A stretch of DNA of 64,000 nucleotides from Patescibacteria group bacterium. Lineage in GTDB: Bacteria > Patescibacteriota > Minisyncoccia > Phycocordibacterales > CAIZLB01. The notes under the pieces were generated by a model. That model was not told where the DNA came from, ran no database searches, and saw nothing but the letters and a program-made list of their open reading frames with translations. The position numbers were made by a program, and so were the translations under genes. The DNA is taken from contig JAZKJG010000001.1 of assembly GCA_040384445.1 (NCBI GenBank), forward strand, positions 71,650 through 135,649, written 5' to 3'. This document shows positions 6,626-23,252 of the stretch, piece after piece. Numbering within the stretch: the stretch's first letter is position 1; each line of letters starts with the position of its first letter.

Positions 6626-8023
6626 ATGAAAAAGCTCACAATACTCTTGGCTTGCTGCTTAGCTCTAGTGCTCTATATATATGTAGAAGCGCCTACTAAA
6701 ATTACGCCCAAAAATGAGACGAAGACTATATCTCTAAACTTCGTAGGAGACATACTCGCTGCGAGAACCATAGAAACGGCAATGCGTAAGAATGGCTATG
6801 ATTATCCATTTGCAAAGATCTCGAAGGAACTAGCAGATGCTGATATTACGTTTGCTAACCTGGAAACACCGCTCATCGCAGGTAATACTACTCCAGGTGG
6901 GAATACTGTGTTCCGAGCCGATACTGCCTTTGCAGACGCATTAAAGAGAACTGGAATTGATATTGTATCTCTGGCCAATAACCACATGAAGGATCAAGGT
7001 GAGAAAGGTATTGTAAGTACTAAGGAAGCATTGGACAAAGCGGGAGTAGTATACGCAGGGGCTGGATTAAGTCTTGATGAAGCGAGATCTTTGAGGATAG
7101 TCGAAGCTAATGGAATTAAAGTTGGATATCTTGCATATAACGACACTGATGTGGTTCCACAAAGTACCTATGCAAATGACTCTCCTCAATCTGGTACGAA
7201 TACTATGGATACAAGACGACTTAAAGAGGATATTGAGAAAGCTCGTTCTCAAGTAAATGTTGTGATTATATCAATGCACTCTGGTACAGAGTATGTGACA
7301 GAAAAGCCTAATACACGTCAAACTACCTTTGCTCGAGCCGCGATCGACTATGGGGCAGACATGGTAATCGGGCATCATCCTCATGTATTACAGCCAATGG
7401 AAATATATAAAAATAAATACATTTTCTATAGTCTCGGAAACTTTGTATTTGATCAAATCATTGCCCCGACTAAAGAAAGTGCATTATTAAAAATGTGGAT
7501 AACTTTCTCAAAGACGGATTCTGGGGTGTGGAAAATTGATAATGCAAAACCTGAAATATTACCACTCGTAATTCAAAATTTTCAACCTCAAAAAACTACC
7601 GATATTTCAAAGAAAAAACTTATTATGAGTCGGTTTAATTCTAGTCCAGCTATTCTTACTTTAGGAGAAGAAATCATATTTGCAGAATTGGCAACAACTA
7701 CCGAAGCTCGGACCCTTGGTCTATCTGGAAGAAAAAAATTACCAGATCGGACAGGTTTGCTGTTTGTCTTTGAGGCTCAAGGGATGCATGGAATATGGAT
7801 GAAGGATATGTTGTTCCCAATTGATATCTATTGGTTCGACCAATCATTTAAGCTTATAGATAAAAGACTTTCTGTCAGTCCTGAAACATATCCAGATGTC
7901 TTTTATCCAAAGCTCAAGGCCACCTATGTCCTTGAGACAAAAGCAGGTCTCTTAGACCCTATGTCCTTGACACAGGACTTGACGGGGGAGTTGACGTTAC
8001 TCGAGTCATATGATAAAAGATAA
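6626..8023 (+). CDS. CapA/PGA_cap family metallophosphatase fused to a C-terminal DUF192 (COG1430) domain, signal-anchored
   Basis: N-terminal NFVGDILAART...GAGLSLDEARS matches CapA. C-terminal GLLFVFEAQGMHGIWMKDMLFPIDIYWFD...YVLETKAG is a strong DUF192 pattern. Confidence 0.75.
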   Translation: MKKLTILLACCLALVLYIYVEAPTKITPKNETKTISLNFVGDILAARTIETAMRKNGYDYPFAKISKELADADITFANLETPLIAGNTTPGGNTVFRADTAFADALKRTGIDIVSLANNHMKDQGEKGIVSTKEALDKAGVVYAGAGLSLDEARSLRIVEANGIKVGYLAYNDTDVVPQSTYANDSPQSGTNTMDTRRLKEDIEKARSQVNVVIISMHSGTEYVTEKPNTRQTTFARAAIDYGADMVIGHHPHVLQPMEIYKNKYIFYSLGNFVFDQIIAPTKESALLKMWITFSKTDSGVWKIDNAKPEILPLVIQNFQPQKTTDISKKKLIMSRFNSSPAILTLGEEIIFAELATTTEARTLGLSGRKKLPDRTGLLFVFEAQGMHGIWMKDMLFPIDIYWFDQSFKLIDKRLSVSPETYPDVFYPKLKATYVLETKAGLLDPMSLTQDLTGELTLLESYDKR

Positions 8024-17046: not shown

Positions 17047-17085
17047 GGTTTTTTCATTTATATAATCGTGCTATAATCAGTAAAT

Positions 17086-18990
17086 ATGTGTGGCATCGCA
17101 GGATTCATCAACTACAGCAATCAACAAGACCCAACACTTCTCAACAAGGCGTTAAACTGCATCGTACACCGAGGACCGGATGATGATGGAATGTTTCGCC
17201 AAGATGCATTTCAAATGGGAATGCGACGACTCTCAATCATCGATATTGCACACGGAAAGCAACCCATAGCAAATGAAGACGGAACAGTAACAGTTGTGTT
17301 CAATGGGGAGATATATAACTACTTAGAACTTAAAATAAAACTTGTAACGCTCGGTCATGTATTTAAAACAGAAAGTGATACAGAATGCCTTGTGCATGGA
17401 TTTGAAGAATGGGGGAAAGATTTGCCAAAACATTTACGGGGAATGTTTGCCTTTTCAATTCATGACAGTAAAACAAATACACTTTTGATAGCGAGAGATC
17501 AATTTGGAATTAAACCTTTGTATTATCGATTAGAAAATAATTCTATTGTAAGTTATGCATCAGAAATAAAATCTCTGCTCGTAGATGCATCATACAAAAA
17601 ACAGATTAACATTCCCGCAGTTCATGCATATGCAACATTTCAGTACAATCCATTTCCAGAAACATTCTTTAAAGATATCTCTAAGTTATCTCCAGGACAC
17701 TCACTCACCATTAACCTAACCGATGGAATATTTAAAATAGAAAAATACTGGCAATTTTCGCTCGCTCCAAAAGAAGGTGATTTTGAGCAAAAAAAGAAAG
17801 ATATAGAGAAAACTATTATCGATTCTGTAAACCACCACATGATTGCAGATGTTCCTGTTGCTTCATTCCTTTCAAGTGGAGTTGATAGTTCTATTATTGC
17901 ATCGCTTGCACATAAGCATATTCAATCTAAAAATCCTGATCAAAAACTGACAACATATACGATAGGATTTGGAACTGATAGATCTGAGATTGATGATGCG
18001 CGAGAATTTGCAAAATATCTTGGAACTGACCACAAAGAAATTCAAGTATCTTTCGATGACTATTTTTCAGTACTTAAGAAATGTGCTTGGCATTTTGATG
18101 AACCTGTAGCTGACCCTTCTGCAATCTCTATGTATCTTATGGCACGAGAGGTAGCGAAGCATCATAAAGTAGTTCTTTCAGGAGAAGGAGCAGACGAACT
18201 TTTTGGAGGATACGGAATATATGCAGAGCCTCACAATCCATGGATTCAACTCATATCATTACAACCTGCGTGGTTTAAAAAATACGTGTTAAAACCTGCT
18301 GATTTTGTTACTCAAGAGATTGTAGATATGTTTCCTGTTCTTGCAAAAACTCCTGGGGTAAGTTTCTTGCATCGTGCATTGCAGCCTGTCCGAGAGCGAT
18401 ATATTGGGAATGCAAAATTATTTTCTGAACAAGAGAAGGATGTGTTATTTAAAAAATATACAGCAGTGAATCCTGTAACGCTACTTGATACTCAAAAAGA
18501 GAATATTGATGGATATACAGAATCTGAATATATGCAGTATATCGACGTGTTGAACTGGATGAGAGGGGATATATTGGCGAAGGCAGACAAGATGACGATG
18601 GCACACTCGTTAGAGCTCCGGGTGCCGTTTCTTGATATGGAAGTATACAACGTGAGTCGAGATATTCCAGATGCATGGAAATATAAAAACAATACTACAA
18701 AATTTGCTCTTCGAGATGCATTTGCATCATACATGCCTGCGAAAACTAATCATCGACCAAAGCTCGGATTTCCAACACCGTGGCATACATGGTTACAGAG
18801 AGATTGCGGTACTGTGAAGAAAACTATTTTGAGTTCTCCAATCATTCAGGAGCTTTGTCATGAGCATGCAGTAGAAAAATTATTTACAAAAAAAGCATTA
18901 GCAGATAAATTTATCGGACGAAGAATTTTTGTTCTCCTCCAGTTATCATTATGGTATGATGTATATATAGATGAAAATAAACCAGCATAA
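17086..18990 (+). CDS. asnB: Asparagine synthetase (glutamine-hydrolysing)
   Basis: The N-terminal MCGIAGF class-II glutamine amidotransferase nucleophile and an AsnB synthetase domain (SGGVDSS). Confidence 0.92.
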   Translation: MCGIAGFINYSNQQDPTLLNKALNCIVHRGPDDDGMFRQDAFQMGMRRLSIIDIAHGKQPIANEDGTVTVVFNGEIYNYLELKIKLVTLGHVFKTESDTECLVHGFEEWGKDLPKHLRGMFAFSIHDSKTNTLLIARDQFGIKPLYYRLENNSIVSYASEIKSLLVDASYKKQINIPAVHAYATFQYNPFPETFFKDISKLSPGHSLTINLTDGIFKIEKYWQFSLAPKEGDFEQKKKDIEKTIIDSVNHHMIADVPVASFLSSGVDSSIIASLAHKHIQSKNPDQKLTTYTIGFGTDRSEIDDAREFAKYLGTDHKEIQVSFDDYFSVLKKCAWHFDEPVADPSAISMYLMAREVAKHHKVVLSGEGADELFGGYGIYAEPHNPWIQLISLQPAWFKKYVLKPADFVTQEIVDMFPVLAKTPGVSFLHRALQPVRERYIGNAKLFSEQEKDVLFKKYTAVNPVTLLDTQKENIDGYTESEYMQYIDVLNWMRGDILAKADKMTMAHSLELRVPFLDMEVYNVSRDIPDAWKYKNNTTKFALRDAFASYMPAKTNHRPKLGFPTPWHTWLQRDCGTVKKTILSSPIIQELCHEHAVEKLFTKKALADKFIGRRIFVLLQLSLWYDVYIDENKPA

Positions 18991-19566: not shown

Positions 19567-20298
19567 CTACAGAGCGTCAATATATCGCTCAAAGTATTCA
19601 AACGGAACTCCGCCAGTAATCAGAGTGGAGTTGTTGATAATAAATGAAGGTGTGGCTCGTACATTTAAATCAAGCGCAGCAGCCTTATCTGCATCAATCT
19701 GTGCTGCATATTTATTTTTTCCATCTGCTACGAGTTTGTCATAATCCAACCCAAGATCTTTTGTCAGATTTCTAAAGAATCCAACTCGTTCTTGAGTTCC
19801 GTATCGAGACCATGTACTTTGAGTCTCGAGAACTTTAGTATGTAAATTTTGATATGCCTCGTTACTTGTTTCTTGTGCAGCAAGAACCATTCGTGCCACT
19901 TCAATAGCAGGTGCACCATGAACTGGGAAAACTCTTCGTGTTACCGTGATTCTATTTCCATATGTTTCTATGAGCATCTTAACAAGAGCTTCACCTTGTA
20001 CGGCACAAGCTGGACATTCATAATCCATAAATTCAGTTACAACAATAGGAGTTGTAGAAGTACTTACTTTTGTAGCCGTTGTGCCTGTGATTTTAGGATT
20101 TACAGCTGGAGCAACAACGTTTGGGTCGAGTGTTAATCCTGTACTGATATTTTTCATAACAGTATCTTCAGAAAGAGTTCCTCCTGTTGATACTCCTTTA
20201 AACATGGTAAGTCCTATGGTGATAATAATAGCCGTCACAGCTAGTATTCCTAAAGCGACCTTAGTTTCTGTTGTAATGGGTGTTGATGTATTTTGCAT
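19567..20298 (-). CDS. DsbA-like thiol:disulfide oxidoreductase (thioredoxin fold, CPAC active site), membrane-anchored
   Basis: EFMDYECPACAVQGEALV and one N-terminal TM. The ORF could start at 20367, but then it overlaps dsbB. Confidence 0.8.
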   Translation of the reverse strand: MQNTSTPITTETKVALGILAVTAIIITIGLTMFKGVSTGGTLSEDTVMKNISTGLTLDPNVVAPAVNPKITGTTATKVSTSTTPIVVTEFMDYECPACAVQGEALVKMLIETYGNRITVTRRVFPVHGAPAIEVARMVLAAQETSNEAYQNLHTKVLETQSTWSRYGTQERVGFFRNLTKDLGLDYDKLVADGKNKYAAQIDADKAAALDLNVRATPSFIINNSTLITGGVPFEYFERYIDAL

Positions 20299-20323
20299 AC
20301 TCCCCAGTATATCAAATATCGAC

Positions 20324-20764
20324 CTATTTTGCAGAGTTCTTTTGAAGCCATTCTCGATATACCACACATCCTAAAAGAACGATAGAAAAGGCTGTAAATG
20401 ACATAAGTGGGATCGTAATAAATCCAAAGTATTCTACGTATTTAGTTGTACATGAGATACCATAACTACATGATTCACCCGGGTCGATAATGCCACTATA
20501 CAGTAGGTTGTGATATAGGGCGAATAGCCAGCCGATAATGGCAAGAGGAAACACGTAGTGATACACCTTTTTGTCACCTCTAAACATTCCAACAAAAAGA
20601 ATAGGAATAAGAGAATACATACAGATTCGCTGATACCAACATAGTACACACGGAGCATATCCTTTAATATCACTGAGATACAAACTGCCGAGCGTGGCCA
20701 CGATTGCCTGGATAAGAACTAGAATAAGGGCGTTTTTCTGGAGCCATTGGGTTGCTGTTTTCAT
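20324..20764 (-). CDS. Disulfide bond formation protein B (DsbB/BdbC family)
   Basis: A 4-TM protein with the CVLCWYQR motif and a second Cys pair (CSYGISC) in the periplasmic loop. It is paired with the DsbA-like gene. Confidence 0.8.
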   Translation of the reverse strand: MKTATQWLQKNALILVLIQAIVATLGSLYLSDIKGYAPCVLCWYQRICMYSLIPILFVGMFRGDKKVYHYVFPLAIIGWLFALYHNLLYSGIIDPGESCSYGISCTTKYVEYFGFITIPLMSFTAFSIVLLGCVVYREWLQKNSAK

Positions 20765-20812
20765 ATATAGTAGTATACCCACAAGTCTATATATCTATGC
20801 TAGTATACAATT

Positions 20813-21529
20813 ATGACATTATATTTTATTATGCTGGCCACAGTAGTTTCAACACTTTTGGGTGGTTTAGTGGCGTTTCGATATAAAAAGTTTGCCCATA
20901 TCTTTACAGGACTTACTGCCGGAACACTTCTAGCAGTTATCTTCCTTGAGATTCTTCCAGAAATCATAGAAATGCAAGAAGGATCCTCAATGCCTCTTTT
21001 GTTTGTTCTTTTTGGATTTATTTTGTTCCATGTAGTTGAGAAAATATTTTCACTACATCATTCGCACGAAGACGGACATCATGGACATCATCATGTTGCC
21101 TCAAAAAAAGTTGGAGCCATCGCACTGATTATTCACTCATTTTTTGATGGATTAAGTATTGCAGTTGCGTATAAAGTATCTCCTGAGTTTGGGTTTTTAC
21201 TCGCACTCGCTGTGATTGCACATGATTTTAGTGATGGGTTTAATACAGTATCTTTGACTGACCGAAGTTCAAAATCAAAGTTTTATTTAGCTATTGATGC
21301 AATTGCACCAGTGCTCGGAGTACTAATCGGAACATTGATATTTATTCCAGATGCATTTCTTGCACCTATACTAGGTATCTGCGCCGGAATTCTGTTGTAC
21401 GTATGTACAGGAGACGTGTTGCCTGAAGCGCATTGTGATAAGCCAAGACATACTGTAGAACACTTATTCGCATTGTGTGCCGGTGTTGCATATATCGTGT
21501 TGATTATTACGCTACTTCCAGTATTATAG
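20813..21529 (+). CDS. ZIP family divalent metal (zinc) transporter (ZupT-like)
   Basis: His-rich loop HHSHEDGHHGHHH and the conserved ZIP TM signature HSFFDGLSIAVAY...HDFSDG. Confidence 0.85.
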   Translation: MTLYFIMLATVVSTLLGGLVAFRYKKFAHIFTGLTAGTLLAVIFLEILPEIIEMQEGSSMPLLFVLFGFILFHVVEKIFSLHHSHEDGHHGHHHVASKKVGAIALIIHSFFDGLSIAVAYKVSPEFGFLLALAVIAHDFSDGFNTVSLTDRSSKSKFYLAIDAIAPVLGVLIGTLIFIPDAFLAPILGICAGILLYVCTGDVLPEAHCDKPRHTVEHLFALCAGVAYIVLIITLLPVL

Positions 21530-21533
21530 AGGT

Positions 21534-21875
21534 ATGAAAGTGTCAGTATACAAAGATAAAATAATTCAGGTGCTGAAAAAGAACCATCTTCTTTCTATTG
21601 CTGATATCCACGCTAAGATTCCAGAATCAAATTTTTCAACTATTTTTAGAAATATTGAAATTCTCAAAACAGAAGGGTTGGTAAAACAGGTTGTTGCAAA
21701 TAAAGATACTATTTTATATGAATTAATTCAGGCAGGGCACGAGCATGATCATTTTATTTGTACTGATTGTGGTGATGTGCAGAGTATACAAATTGACAAA
21801 AAAGCCTTACATCTAAAGGGTAAAACAAAGGTGACAGACACTGTGGTTCATGGATTTTGTACAAAGTGTTGTTAG
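21534..21875 (+). CDS. Fur family transcriptional regulator (Zur-like)
   Basis: EHDHFICTDCGDV...HGFCTKCC metal-site motifs and a winged-helix N-terminus. It lies 5 nt after the ZIP gene. Confidence 0.85.
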   Translation: MKVSVYKDKIIQVLKKNHLLSIADIHAKIPESNFSTIFRNIEILKTEGLVKQVVANKDTILYELIQAGHEHDHFICTDCGDVQSIQIDKKALHLKGKTKVTDTVVHGFCTKCC

Positions 21876-21884
21876 TGTTTTCTA

Positions 21885-21924
21885 AATGCAAACGACTTGC
21901 ATTATAATTTGTATTATGTATAAT
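21885..21924 (+). promoter_or_regulatory. Candidate sigma70-like promoter (TTGCAT-16-TATAAT) overlapped by a 7-5-7 inverted repeat, aatgcaa-acgac-ttgcatt. This is a candidate metalloregulator operator.
   Basis: Inverted repeat at 21885-21903. The -35 element is at 21897-21902 and the -10 at 21919-21924. It sits directly between the zur stop and a Cys-rich micro-ORF. Confidence 0.3.
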
Positions 21925-21974
21925 AGAGGATAACCAACGATGATGTTGGGGATAGGAAGGAACATAATCACAAT

Positions 21975-22034
21975 ATGAAAATTTGTTTCGGAGAAGATGA
22001 TGGCTGCTGTGGCGGTGGTTGTGGATGTGGTTAG
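21975..22034 (+). CDS. Cys/Gly-rich 19-aa peptide (MKICFGEDDGCCGGGCGCG), a putative metal-binding or RiPP-like peptide
   Basis: I translated this by hand. There is an aggaagga RBS-like sequence 13 nt upstream and 7 Cys in the last 9 residues. It lies between zur and yibE/F. Confidence 0.35.
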   Translation: MKICFGEDDGCCGGGCGCG

Positions 22035-22136
22035 CCCCCCCACCTTAATTCCTCCAAGGGGAATATTAAATAATCTTGGCTCGAGAGTCTGGCACATCTG
22101 TGTCGGACTCTTTTTTAACAATGGTATAATACATAT

Positions 22137-23252
22137 ATGAAATTCATCAAATTATTTTTACTTACGTTTGCGGTACTTACCGTCACATCATTATCTGCAC
22201 AAGAGATTGTTCCTGACACGCTTGAATATCTTAAAGCAGAAGTTGTGTCAGTAGAGTTTTTGGAAGAGCGATTGCTTGTAGGTACAACAACGCGAAATGT
22301 ATACACTGTTTCAGCCCGTCTTGAAAATGGAAATATAGAAGAATTTGAAAGTGACCACTATGAAGTGGAACCTGGAGATAAAATGTATGTGCTCAAACGA
22401 ACTGACTTAGATGGAAATGTGACATACAGACTCGATGAACCAGTGAGACTTCCTATACTGTTAATCCTTACGTTTGTTTTTGTTGTTTTAAGTATTTGGA
22501 TTGGAGGAAAACAAGGTGTGAAAGGATTACTTACATTAATTGGAAGTATGTTTTTATTATTTCTATTTCTTGTTCCAAGTATCATCAAAGGGTATTCGCC
22601 AGTACTTATAAGTTTACTGGTCGCTTCATTTATAATCATCTTAGGATCATATGTTACGCATGGGTTCAATAGAACAACAAGTACAGCCATAGCAGGAATG
22701 ATCACAACAGTACTAGGGGCTGGATTGGCAACATTTGTAAGTATGTACTTGATGAAGCTGACTGGATTGTATAGTGAAGACGTTGTGTATCTTATGTTTA
22801 ATACTTCAGGGACACTCGATGTGAAAGGTTTATTGTTTGCAGGAATTATGATTGGATTACTTGGAATTTTATATGATGTGGCAATTGGACAAGCTATTGC
22901 AGTTGAGGAGTTGATACGTGCAGATGGAACGATGACGCCACGAAAACTTATTGAGCGAGGGCTTCGTATTGGACGTGAACATATTGGTGCGCTCGTTGAT
23001 ACATTGGCATTAGCATACGTTGGAGCATCACTTCCACTTCTTCTTTTATTTGCAACATCTGATGCGCCTATCTTATATATTTTAAATAGAGAAGACATCT
23101 CAACTGAACTTGTTCGAATTTTGGTAGGTAGTGCAAGTATTATAATTGCTGTTCCTATTACGACATATATTGCGGTATATGTACTTAAAAAATACGGAAT
23201 TCCGTCTCATAAAACTGAAGGTGGTTGCGGACATGTCCATCACGAGCATTAG
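22137..23252 (+). CDS. YibE/F family membrane protein with a His/Cys-rich C-terminus (GGCGHVHHEH)
   Basis: Signal peptide, soluble N-terminal domain and a multi-TM YibE/F-like core. The C-terminal metal-binding-like tail fits the zinc locus. Confidence 0.6.
   Translation: MKFIKLFLLTFAVLTVTSLSAQEIVPDTLEYLKAEVVSVEFLEERLLVGTTTRNVYTVSARLENGNIEEFESDHYEVEPGDKMYVLKRTDLDGNVTYRLDEPVRLPILLILTFVFVVLSIWIGGKQGVKGLLTLIGSMFLLFLFLVPSIIKGYSPVLISLLVASFIIILGSYVTHGFNRTTSTAIAGMITTVLGAGLATFVSMYLMKLTGLYSEDVVYLMFNTSGTLDVKGLLFAGIMIGLLGILYDVAIGQAIAVEELIRADGTMTPRKLIERGLRIGREHIGALVDTLALAYVGASLPLLLLFATSDAPILYILNREDISTELVRILVGSASIIIAVPITTYIAVYVLKKYGIPSHKTEGGCGHVHHEH

Follow-up and report, generated by a model that had tools for sequence, protein, structure and literature searches.

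A conserved Cys/Gly-rich micro-gene with a Fur/Zur-type operator in Patescibacteria, and its possible role in zinc handling

Within a 64-kb stretch of the Patescibacteria contig JAZKJG010000001.1 (the window), a micro-gene of 19 codons encoding a Cys/Gly-rich peptide lies between a ZIP transporter/Fur-family regulator gene pair and a gene for a YibE/F-family membrane protein. Comparison with a set of related loci from Patescibacteria genomes (designated by L-numbers) established, at the level of sequence, its operator, promoter layout, terminator and conserved reading frame, together with purifying selection. The feature is real and conserved, and the leading interpretation of a first-pass annotation, made earlier from the letters of the window, holds in outline. 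Regulation by zinc, translation, metal binding and partner proteins are what we infer from this comparison, and our preferred interpretation, to which we assign a probability of about 0.55, is that the region is a Zur-repressed gene for a translated, thiolate metal-binding micro-protein, which would act with the His/Cys-tailed YibE/F protein and, in relatives, with a CooC-like chaperone.

The elements of the micro-gene in the window are as follows.
21885..21903, no strand assigned: Fur/Zur-type operator AATGCAAACGACTTGCATT, with a 7-1-7 core TGCAAAC-g-ACTTGCA and a perfect 7-5-7 repeat AATGCAA-acgac-TTGCATT.
21897..21924, + strand: sigma-70-type promoter read from the sequence, -35 TTGCAT (21897-21902, within the right half-site of the operator), 16-nt spacer, -10 TATAAT (21919-21924).
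21934..21949, + strand: stem-loop CCAAC-gatgat-GTTGG in the 5' untranslated region (UTR), found in minimum free energy and centroid folds; L141 has CCAAC-cgagat-GTTGG.
21955..21962, + strand: Shine-Dalgarno (SD)-like purine tract GGAAGGAA, 12 nt 5' of the ATG.
21975..22034, + strand: micro-open reading frame (micro-ORF) of 19 codons plus stop, ATG at 21975 and TAG at 22032-22034, peptide MKICFGEDDGCCGGGCGCG.
22048..22064, + strand: 3'-UTR stem-loop ATTCCTC-caa-GGGGAAT, from the fold; identical in L083 and L141, ATTCCT-gcatg-AGGAAT in L001.
22083..22116, + strand: intrinsic terminator with a 13-bp stem GAGAGTCTGGCAC/GTGTCGGACTCTT, loop ATCT and a T-run; the hairpin spans 22083-22112 (dG -19.7 kcal/mol).

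The first-pass annotation had described the 19-aa ORF at these positions, an RBS-like purine tract and a TTGCAT-16-TATAAT promoter whose -35 element sits in a perfect 7-5-7 inverted repeat, and all of these can be read directly from the sequence. Its count of seven Cys among the last nine residues was mistaken, since that segment, CCGGGCGCG, contains four Cys and five Gly, and the whole peptide five Cys and seven Gly. In the peptide (26% Cys, in the pattern CC-x3-C-x-C) a short N-terminal stretch, MKICFG, is followed by the acidic linker EDDG and then by the C-terminal Cys/Gly cluster. Among the 562 small ATG-initiated ORFs of the window it ranks first both in Cys fraction (0.26) and in Cys plus Gly fraction (0.63, the runner-up reaching 0.33).

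The palindrome over the -35 element, searched with its 14 specified bases, occurs once in the window and was absent from 100 shuffles. Its core ATGCAA-N5-TTGCAT was found exactly in 14 of 80 related loci and, with one mismatch allowed, upstream of Fur-family, ZIP, ZnuA, ABC-3 permease, CooC-like P-loop ATPase and YibE/F genes. Divergent promoter regions are a frequent setting, and the box is doubled in some cases; the recurrence before ZIP and yibE/F genes for which the first-pass annotation had suggested looking was thus observed. The consensus of 81 distinct sites in these loci was tAAaTGCAAaTnAtTTGCAtTTa, a 7-1-7 motif with the AAT-n-ATT core of the Fur family. A position weight matrix built from the 81 sites scored the window operator at 27.5 and the second-best position in the 64 kb at 7.1, and therefore the promoter of the micro-gene is the sole target of the box in the window; the same scan found no Zur-type box upstream of the window's own ZIP-zur pair. 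The promoter layout, TTGCAT-16/17-TAnnnT, is kept in at least eight relatives, including L001, L002, L003 and L084-L087, and transcription is predicted to start near 21931.

Zur boxes are typically palindromes, such as 7-1-7 sites, overlapping the -35 element, and typical regulon members are ZupT, ZnuABC and P-loop chaperones, according to the excerpted text of PMC6103462. The site upstream of the micro-ORF is likewise palindromic, AT-rich and of the 7-1-7 form, overlaps the -35 and recurs before uptake and regulator genes, and by sequence we regard it as a recurrent Fur-family operator of zinc-uptake genes in Paceibacteria. Zinc is most likely the signal of the regulator, because the targets of the box include ZIP, ZnuA and ABC-3 genes. 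The 7-1-7 architecture is that of known Zur boxes and the AAT-n-ATT core that of Fur-family boxes; the sequence itself is unlike the published boxes.

An exact DnaA-box consensus, TGTGGATAA, was also seen at the micro-ORF promoters of relatives, 14-34 nt (usually 24 nt) 5' of the Zur-type box, at L001 2859, L003 3628, L084 2658, L085 1875, L086 1840, L087 1179, L138 1281, L139 1378 (minus strand) and L140 2108. Of its 19 copies in 860 kb of loci, 11 lie no more than 60 nt from a box. The micro-ORF promoter of the window is without it, the single window copy being at 7494, and it is a candidate site for a second regulator or for DnaA.

Conservation of the reading frame was followed outwards from the window. 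In L083, a 99% identical strain, the micro-ORF is unchanged; the differences in this region are confined to three C-to-T/A changes in the C-run right after the stop codon (window 22035-22044, L083 2899-2908) and one more near the YibE/F start, a number of sites too small for interpretation. Among the non-identical relatives the closest is L141, with a YibE/F identity of 85%; its ORF, in the same frame and place, encodes MKIMFGEGDGCGCGGC and stops three codons earlier, and the 5' hairpin, purine tract, 3' hairpin and terminator, the last with compensatory changes, are all kept. Window and L141 differ by seven synonymous and six non-synonymous changes over 8.8 and 36.2 sites, respectively (pS 0.79, pN 0.17). 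About 17 further loci (about 18 with L141) contain ORFs of 16-46 aa at the equivalent position, with three to six Cys in a C-terminal cluster of CxC or CxxC spacing, and share the order Zur box, 5' hairpin, ORF (SD-led in the clade of the window), covarying terminator and then a CooC-like ATPase and/or YibE/F. The ORFs of the family, which in the clade of the window have ATG, GTG or TTG starts preceded by conserved SD tracts, include the following.
L084: MKIIFGFLMKVACRKTGLRRPTPGCTCGSCRACGCE, TTG start, beginning MKIIFGF.
L085: MRSTKSHLQEEDSGCGCGGSGSCCGG, containing ...EEDSGCGCGGSGSCCGG.
L086: MWKLFASLRAALCPSCGKPKKGSAKPCDGDTCTCGR.
L087 and L138: similar to L086, with GTG starts.
L001: MNKMMQGLRTLMRAVFCPVCGKPKKSAHTHGCGGPDCSCS.
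L002 and L139: CSKC...C...CxxC/CxC forms.
L003 and L140: Cys-rich forms.
L013, L015, L089, L090, L133 and L135: a second clade, of the ...IVRLP...SCGCSGACTCG(Q/G)G type.

Selection on the peptide was seen in both clades: L086 and L087 differ by dN 0.17 and dS 0.54 plus an in-frame 3-nt indel, and the CGCSGACTCG motif, compared in four loci, gave pN values of 0.04-0.2 versus pS values of 0.6-1.0. Loss of the frame in relatives, which the first-pass annotation had named as fatal to its proposal, was thus not what was found. Family members were chosen by position relative to the box, composition filters on the loci having been dropped (a strict filter returned L015 alone, and a loose Cys filter returned 81 versus 31-45 in shuffled sequence). 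A family profile run over 34,000 stop-to-stop segments recovered the expected positions and one further match, in L061, which was rejected as a false positive because it is read in another frame within a ZIP gene. An alignment of flanking signals joins the window to L001, L084-L087, L138 and L141, and the window shares the box promoter, C-terminal Cys cluster, terminator and following ATPase or YibE/F gene that define the family by position.

The counterpart aligned to the SD-like tract of the window reads AGGAAGGA(A/G) in L001 and L084, and AAGGAGG in L085-L087 and L138; in these loci the tracts lie 7-10 nt ahead of the start codons. The tract stands out in the window because an SD-like motif is present in just 3 of 48 long ORFs. 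An extended -10 element (TGnTAnnnT) was found 6-10 nt 5' of the ATG in 17 of these 48, against about 1.7 expected, for example at 22122-22139 (YibE/F), 20797-20815 (ZIP) and 17066-17088, and therefore leaderless or near-leaderless mRNAs, with SD motifs nearly absent, seem to be the norm there. Upstream of the micro-ORF, a 12-codon ORF, MMLGIGRNIITI (window 21940-21978), begins in the 5' hairpin, and its TGA overlaps the micro-ORF start (ATGA). An equivalent (MLGIERKLQK) is present at L141 26-58, its frame kept across a 3-nt indel, and L001 is without it; the overlap may reflect termination-reinitiation coupling, or chance between close relatives.

No gene was called in this gap in any of the gene tables of relatives, in keeping with the earlier remark that ORFs of this size are missed by standard callers, and a peptide-alignment search of a 5.8-billion-protein database returned one match, an N-terminally extended form of the L013 ORF. 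Pfam and NCBIfam searches with the peptides of 16 relatives, at E values up to 10, gave nothing significant and no metallothionein model, and the best score of the PF12669 profile (E 4.2, 8 bits, cut-off 27) was for L135 alone. A permissive Rfam search of 21000-23000 returned only chance snoRNA-like matches, and an Rfam search of the whole window four tRNAs; a structured RNA, which had been the other refuting outcome, was therefore not indicated by any family match. Literature searches on YibE/F or Zur in Patescibacteria found nothing relevant. Two further ideas were discarded: that of a ribosomal-protein paralogue, Cys-less forms of which are derepressed in Zur regulons, as no ribosomal family matched, and that of a lipoprotein or secreted peptide, on the N-terminal sequences.

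The terminator, which the first-pass annotation had not mentioned, was found by folding, and with its 13-bp stem it makes the micro-ORF its own transcription unit of about 185 nt. Aligned with five relatives of the window clade, 6 of its 12 pairs show compensatory changes, as do 3 of 9 pairs of the terminator of the second clade. Hairpins analogous to the 5'-UTR stem-loop occur in L001 and L002. Compared with shuffles the fold of the transcript is unremarkable (z -1.1), with nothing beyond the hairpins. A simple promoter and terminator scanner detected neither signal of the micro-gene, both having come from sequence reading, folding and comparison. Downstream, YibE/F has a leaderless-type promoter of its own in the window, with an equivalent in L141, and therefore the micro-gene is a stand-alone unit here. 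In the relatives the ATPase begins 20-50 nt past the T-run, mostly with no recognisable promoter, and the larger genes are likely to be expressed by partial read-through of the terminator. In L003 (3863-3975) and L140 (2311-2480), both of which are without the ATPase, a GC-richer, strongly folding RNA of 110-170 nt (z about -3 versus shuffles) separates the micro-ORF from YibE/F; for L003 3863-3975 no Rfam match was found.

This arrangement could be envisaged as an attenuator, in which translation of the Cys/Gly codons, or zinc binding by the nascent peptide, would set read-through into the ATPase or YibE/F gene and the peptide would have no function of its own. A promoter, a short ORF, a strong terminator and a structural gene 20-50 nt further on do follow one another as in such systems, and in other Paceibacteria the Zur box lies straight before YibE/F or the ATPase with no micro-ORF, so that ORF and terminator look inserted between promoter and targets. 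The ATPase of several relatives is without an evident promoter, and in some loci, with 6-19 nt between stop codon and terminator stem, the stem could be masked by a ribosome in the act of terminating. However, when 13 loci were examined, with transcripts folded as truncated before the 3' arm, no conserved antiterminator partner for the 5' arm was found, the partners being different and non-homologous, and the distance from stop to stem varies from 6 to 48 nt. Purifying selection extends beyond the Cys codons to the IVRLP, CPxCGKPKK and CGCSGAC motifs, with pN well under pS, the downstream gene has its own leaderless-type promoter in the window and L141, and why Cys codons should be tied to a zinc regulon is not obvious. 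We consider a purely cis-acting leader unlikely, and antiterminator, geometry and selection results argue against a classical leader-peptide attenuator, although a translation-dependent effect on read-through may operate in some relatives. The leader peptide offered as an option by the first-pass annotation finds little support, given the lack of a conserved antiterminator, the variable stop-terminator distance and the separate YibE/F promoter.

The genes around the micro-gene, and the YibE/F promoter, are as follows.
20813..21529, + strand: ZIP (ZupT-like) metal transporter gene, first of the ZIP-zur pair (Pfam PF02535, E 7e-24; NCBIfam ZupT weak).
21534..21875, + strand: short Fur-family regulator gene (113 aa), presumed Zur (Pfam PF01475, E 4e-15), ending 10 nt 5' of the operator.
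22122..22139, + strand: separate extended -10 promoter TGGTATAAT, then 6 nt and the YibE/F ATG (leaderless type); L141 has TGATATAGT-6-ATG at the equivalent position.
22137..23252, + strand: YibE/F-family membrane protein gene (Pfam PF07907, E 1.5e-64), Cys/His tail ...KTEGGCGHVHHEH, C-terminus GGCGHVHHEH.

Pfam bears out the three neighbours that had been named from the sequence, ZIP and the regulator (as a Fur-family protein) upstream and YibE/F downstream, and places a ParB gene after YibE/F. Orthologues of the 113-aa regulator are found at the equivalent position in L001, L083-L087 and L138-L140, and the NCBIfam Fur, PerR and Zur models all score far under their cut-offs. The relatives of the YibE/F protein all come from metagenome-assembled genomes of Patescibacteria (Paceibacterota/Parcubacteria). 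Of 117 YibE/F homologues, 111 have a C-terminal tail with at least two His, many with HHHH or HxHxH, and in the micro-ORF clade the tail reads KTEGGC(G/A/V)H.H (KTEGGCGHVHH at 23211-23249 of the window). YibE/F is probably a metal transporter, because in several other Paceibacteria (L011, L012, L017, L041, L063 and L079) a Zur-type box lies directly upstream of its gene. AlphaFold2 (pLDDT 80) models the protein with a beta domain at the N-terminus and, in the membrane, a domain of helices; no solved structure was matched to the model.

Most relatives have, after the micro-ORF and its terminator, a gene for a 270-aa P-loop ATPase and then YibE/F. This CooC-like ATPase lies under a Zur-type box at L001 3181-3993, L085 2192-3004, L086 2189-3004 and L087 1503-2315, and also in L013, L015 and L002; it is absent from the window and from L084, L140, L141 and L003. 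Its best match, over the whole length, was the nickel chaperone CooC1 (PDB 3kje), with whose metal-bridging Cys-x-Cys motif an invariant Cys-Ser-His aligns. Wherever enough upstream sequence is available, each ATPase with an identity of at least 49% to the L001 protein is preceded by the micro-ORF, whereas in front of more distant ATPases the box stands directly and the micro-ORF is absent. We regard the protein as a candidate zinc chaperone that does not belong to COG0523, the family usual in this role.

These relationships also raise the question of whether the metal to which regulator and module respond is nickel, cobalt, iron or manganese, the micro-protein being otherwise the same. CooC is a nickel chaperone and the closest solved relative of the linked ATPase, His-rich tails are typical of nickel proteins, and none of the Fur, PerR and Zur models came near its cut-off. 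Against this, the recurrence of the box before ZIP, ZnuA, ABC-3 and the ZIP-paired regulator is the usual make-up of a Zur regulon as described in the excerpted text of PMC6103462, and the loci examined showed no genes for nickel enzymes. A metal other than zinc seems to us an improbable signal, though one worth keeping in mind.

Genes for a DsbA-like protein and DsbB were noted at window 19567-20782 (minus strand), divergent from the ZIP-zur pair, and at the equivalent position in L083, L084, L086, L139 and L140, where they adjoin the thiol-rich peptide locus. Their conservation nearby would suit a precursor of an exported or modified peptide, such as a metallophore or thiol peptide of the kind known as ribosomally synthesised and post-translationally modified peptides (RiPPs), with YibE/F as exporter. 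So would the leader-plus-core shape of the product, in which a variable or recognisable N-terminus (IVRLP, or the amphipathic MKKLFASL) precedes a Cys-rich C-terminus, and the succession of small gene, terminator and larger genes recalls bacteriocin and RiPP operons. No radical-SAM, YcaO, lanthipeptide, MbnB/C-like or peptidase gene was found in any locus, however, the gene tables of nine relatives listing DsbA/B, ZIP, FUR, CbiA-type ATPase, YibE_F, ParB and unrelated genes only. The 16-19-aa forms are almost leaderless, the peptides have no signal peptide, and the His/Cys tail of YibE/F with the Zur box upstream in other genomes suggests metal uptake. We therefore hold this origin to be very unlikely, and the RiPP-like option of the first-pass annotation has little to commend it with modifying enzymes not found nearby. 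A Zur-regulated small RNA acting by base-pairing or structure, with a fortuitous ORF, would explain the short transcript with its own promoter and terminator and the UTR hairpins conserved about as well as the ORF between window and L141, but it is most improbable in view of the absence of an Rfam match, the ordinary fold (z -1.1), the lack of conservation outside the signals in the family as a whole, in contrast to the invariably present open frame with Cys codons, and synonymous changes that exceed non-synonymous ones per site.

The favoured reading, that of a Zur-repressed gene for a metal-binding micro-protein, leads to the following proposal. When zinc is sufficient, the presumed Zur in its metal-bound form would occupy the 7-1-7 operator, and since the operator overlaps the -35 element, transcription would be blocked. 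Under zinc scarcity the promoter would fire and give a short, probably abundant mRNA of about 185 nt, made up of the 5' stem-loop, the SD-like tract, the 19-codon ORF, the 3' stem-loop and the strong terminator. The C-terminal Cys/Gly cluster of the peptide would bind Zn(II), or another thiophilic metal, through its thiolates; as suggested by the Cys number of three to six, this may require a dimer or ligands shared with the GGCGHVHH tail of YibE/F. In the cytosol the peptide could then be an acceptor, relay or modulator of the metal that enters via YibE/F or ZIP. As the micro-ORF precedes the CooC-like ATPase and YibE/F in most relatives, the probable role of the peptide is that of the small partner that carries metal within a metallochaperone/transporter module, and in those relatives it would also serve the CooC-like chaperone. 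In the lineage of the window the ATPase would have been lost and the peptide shortened.

Several observations weigh against this interpretation. The SD spacing of 12 nt in the window is long, and the UTRs are as conserved as the ORF between window and L141, so that a role at the RNA level is possible. Against the family profile the window peptide, which is very short, scores 10.6 bits (E 1.1 among the 34,000 segments), and therefore its family membership rests on synteny, the aligned flanking signals and the intermediates L141, L084 and L085. With Cys counts of three to six, and three in L141, a single peptide may not form a Cys4 site. The metal specificity of a Fur-family regulator cannot be read from sequence, and the CooC relatives and His-rich tails would fit nickel too. 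Classical metallothioneins, moreover, are induced by metal excess, whereas the box over the -35 predicts induction under scarcity. The first-pass proposal of a Zur-controlled metallothionein-like or metallochaperone micro-protein is favoured by the comparative evidence of operator and frame conservation, but the peptide matches no metallothionein family model, and metal binding is suggested by composition and context.

By sequence the peptide falls outside the metallothionein, PF12669 and MntS families, although it has points in common with each. With bacterial metallothioneins (SmtA/BmtA) and short fungal Cu-metallothioneins, for example that of Neurospora crassa, the peptides share very small size, 20-26% Cys, CxC/CxxC spacing, an abundance of Gly and Ser and a scarcity of aromatics within the Cys region, and the CGCSGA stretch of relatives is presumably shared with the fungal Cu-metallothionein. 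Low mass and high Cys content are as in metallothioneins, but no metallothionein sequence family matched the peptides of the 16 relatives. They differ further in having three to six Cys, enough for about one site rather than a cluster, in the N-terminal non-Cys segment and in the predicted induction by scarcity rather than excess. The Cys-rich oligopeptides encoded beside FeoB (PF12669) are ORFs of about 40 aa whose Cys residues cluster at the C-terminus; according to PMC8749426 neither their translation nor their role has been settled. The micro-ORF likewise encodes a C-terminal Cys cluster beside a metal transporter, but its products have short, basic, amphipathic or acidic N-termini in place of a transmembrane one, match neither the profile nor the position next to feoB, and are partnered by YibE/F or the CooC-like ATPase instead of FeoB, the gene lying upstream with its own terminator and Zur box.

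MntS of Escherichia coli is reportedly a small protein that is repressed by its cognate metalloregulator, made when metal is scarce and active on metal availability or transport. The micro-gene is likewise predicted to be switched on in metal scarcity through a metalloregulator; it has no sequence relation to MntS, which is not Cys-rich and has another metal and partner. The partners of SIMIBI NTPase chaperones (CooT/CooJ with CooC, UreE with UreG, HypA with HypB) resemble the peptide in that its gene directly precedes a CooC-like ATPase in relatives, but the peptide is far smaller, has no homology to them and is under Zur-type control, and the window itself is without the ATPase. With attenuators of the trpL/hisL type the locus has in common a short ORF enriched in one amino acid, an intrinsic terminator and then structural genes, and it differs in the lack of an alternative antiterminator, the variable geometry and the selection on the peptide sequence. 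Known Zur regulons, finally, have the same AT-rich 7-1-7 palindrome over the -35 beside a Fur-family gene, recurring before ZIP/ZupT, ZnuA, ABC-3 and P-loop metallochaperone-type NTPase genes. The box here, TGCAAaT-n-AtTTGCA, does not have the sequence published for Bacillus, enterobacteria or actinobacteria, the place of a COG0523 NTPase of chaperone type is taken by a CooC-like one, and a Cys-rich micro-protein is not among the members named in the excerpted text of PMC6103462.

A bolder and, in our estimation, rather unlikely extension is that Paceibacteria, with their minimal metabolism, have replaced a small-molecule thiol by a gene-encoded thiol micropeptide. It would buffer or relay zinc, docking on the Cys/His tail of the hitherto uncharacterised YibE/F transporter family and handing the metal to the CooC-type Cys-x-His ATPase, and the three would make up a new pathway of zinc acquisition and insertion. 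In a more radical variant, the Cys-rich nascent peptide may sense zinc on the ribosome and set terminator read-through, as a metal-sensing leader peptide.

The micro-gene adds a conserved, selected and previously unannotated member to the probable zinc regulon of a major uncultured bacterial group. The operator defined here, a putative Zur operator of Patescibacteria, can be used for mapping zinc regulons in these genomes. The finding also ties two poorly understood families, the His-tailed YibE/F proteins and the CooC-like Cys-x-His ATPases, to metal handling. Should the peptide bind zinc, few gene-encoded metal carriers would be smaller, and it is short enough for synthesis and direct testing.

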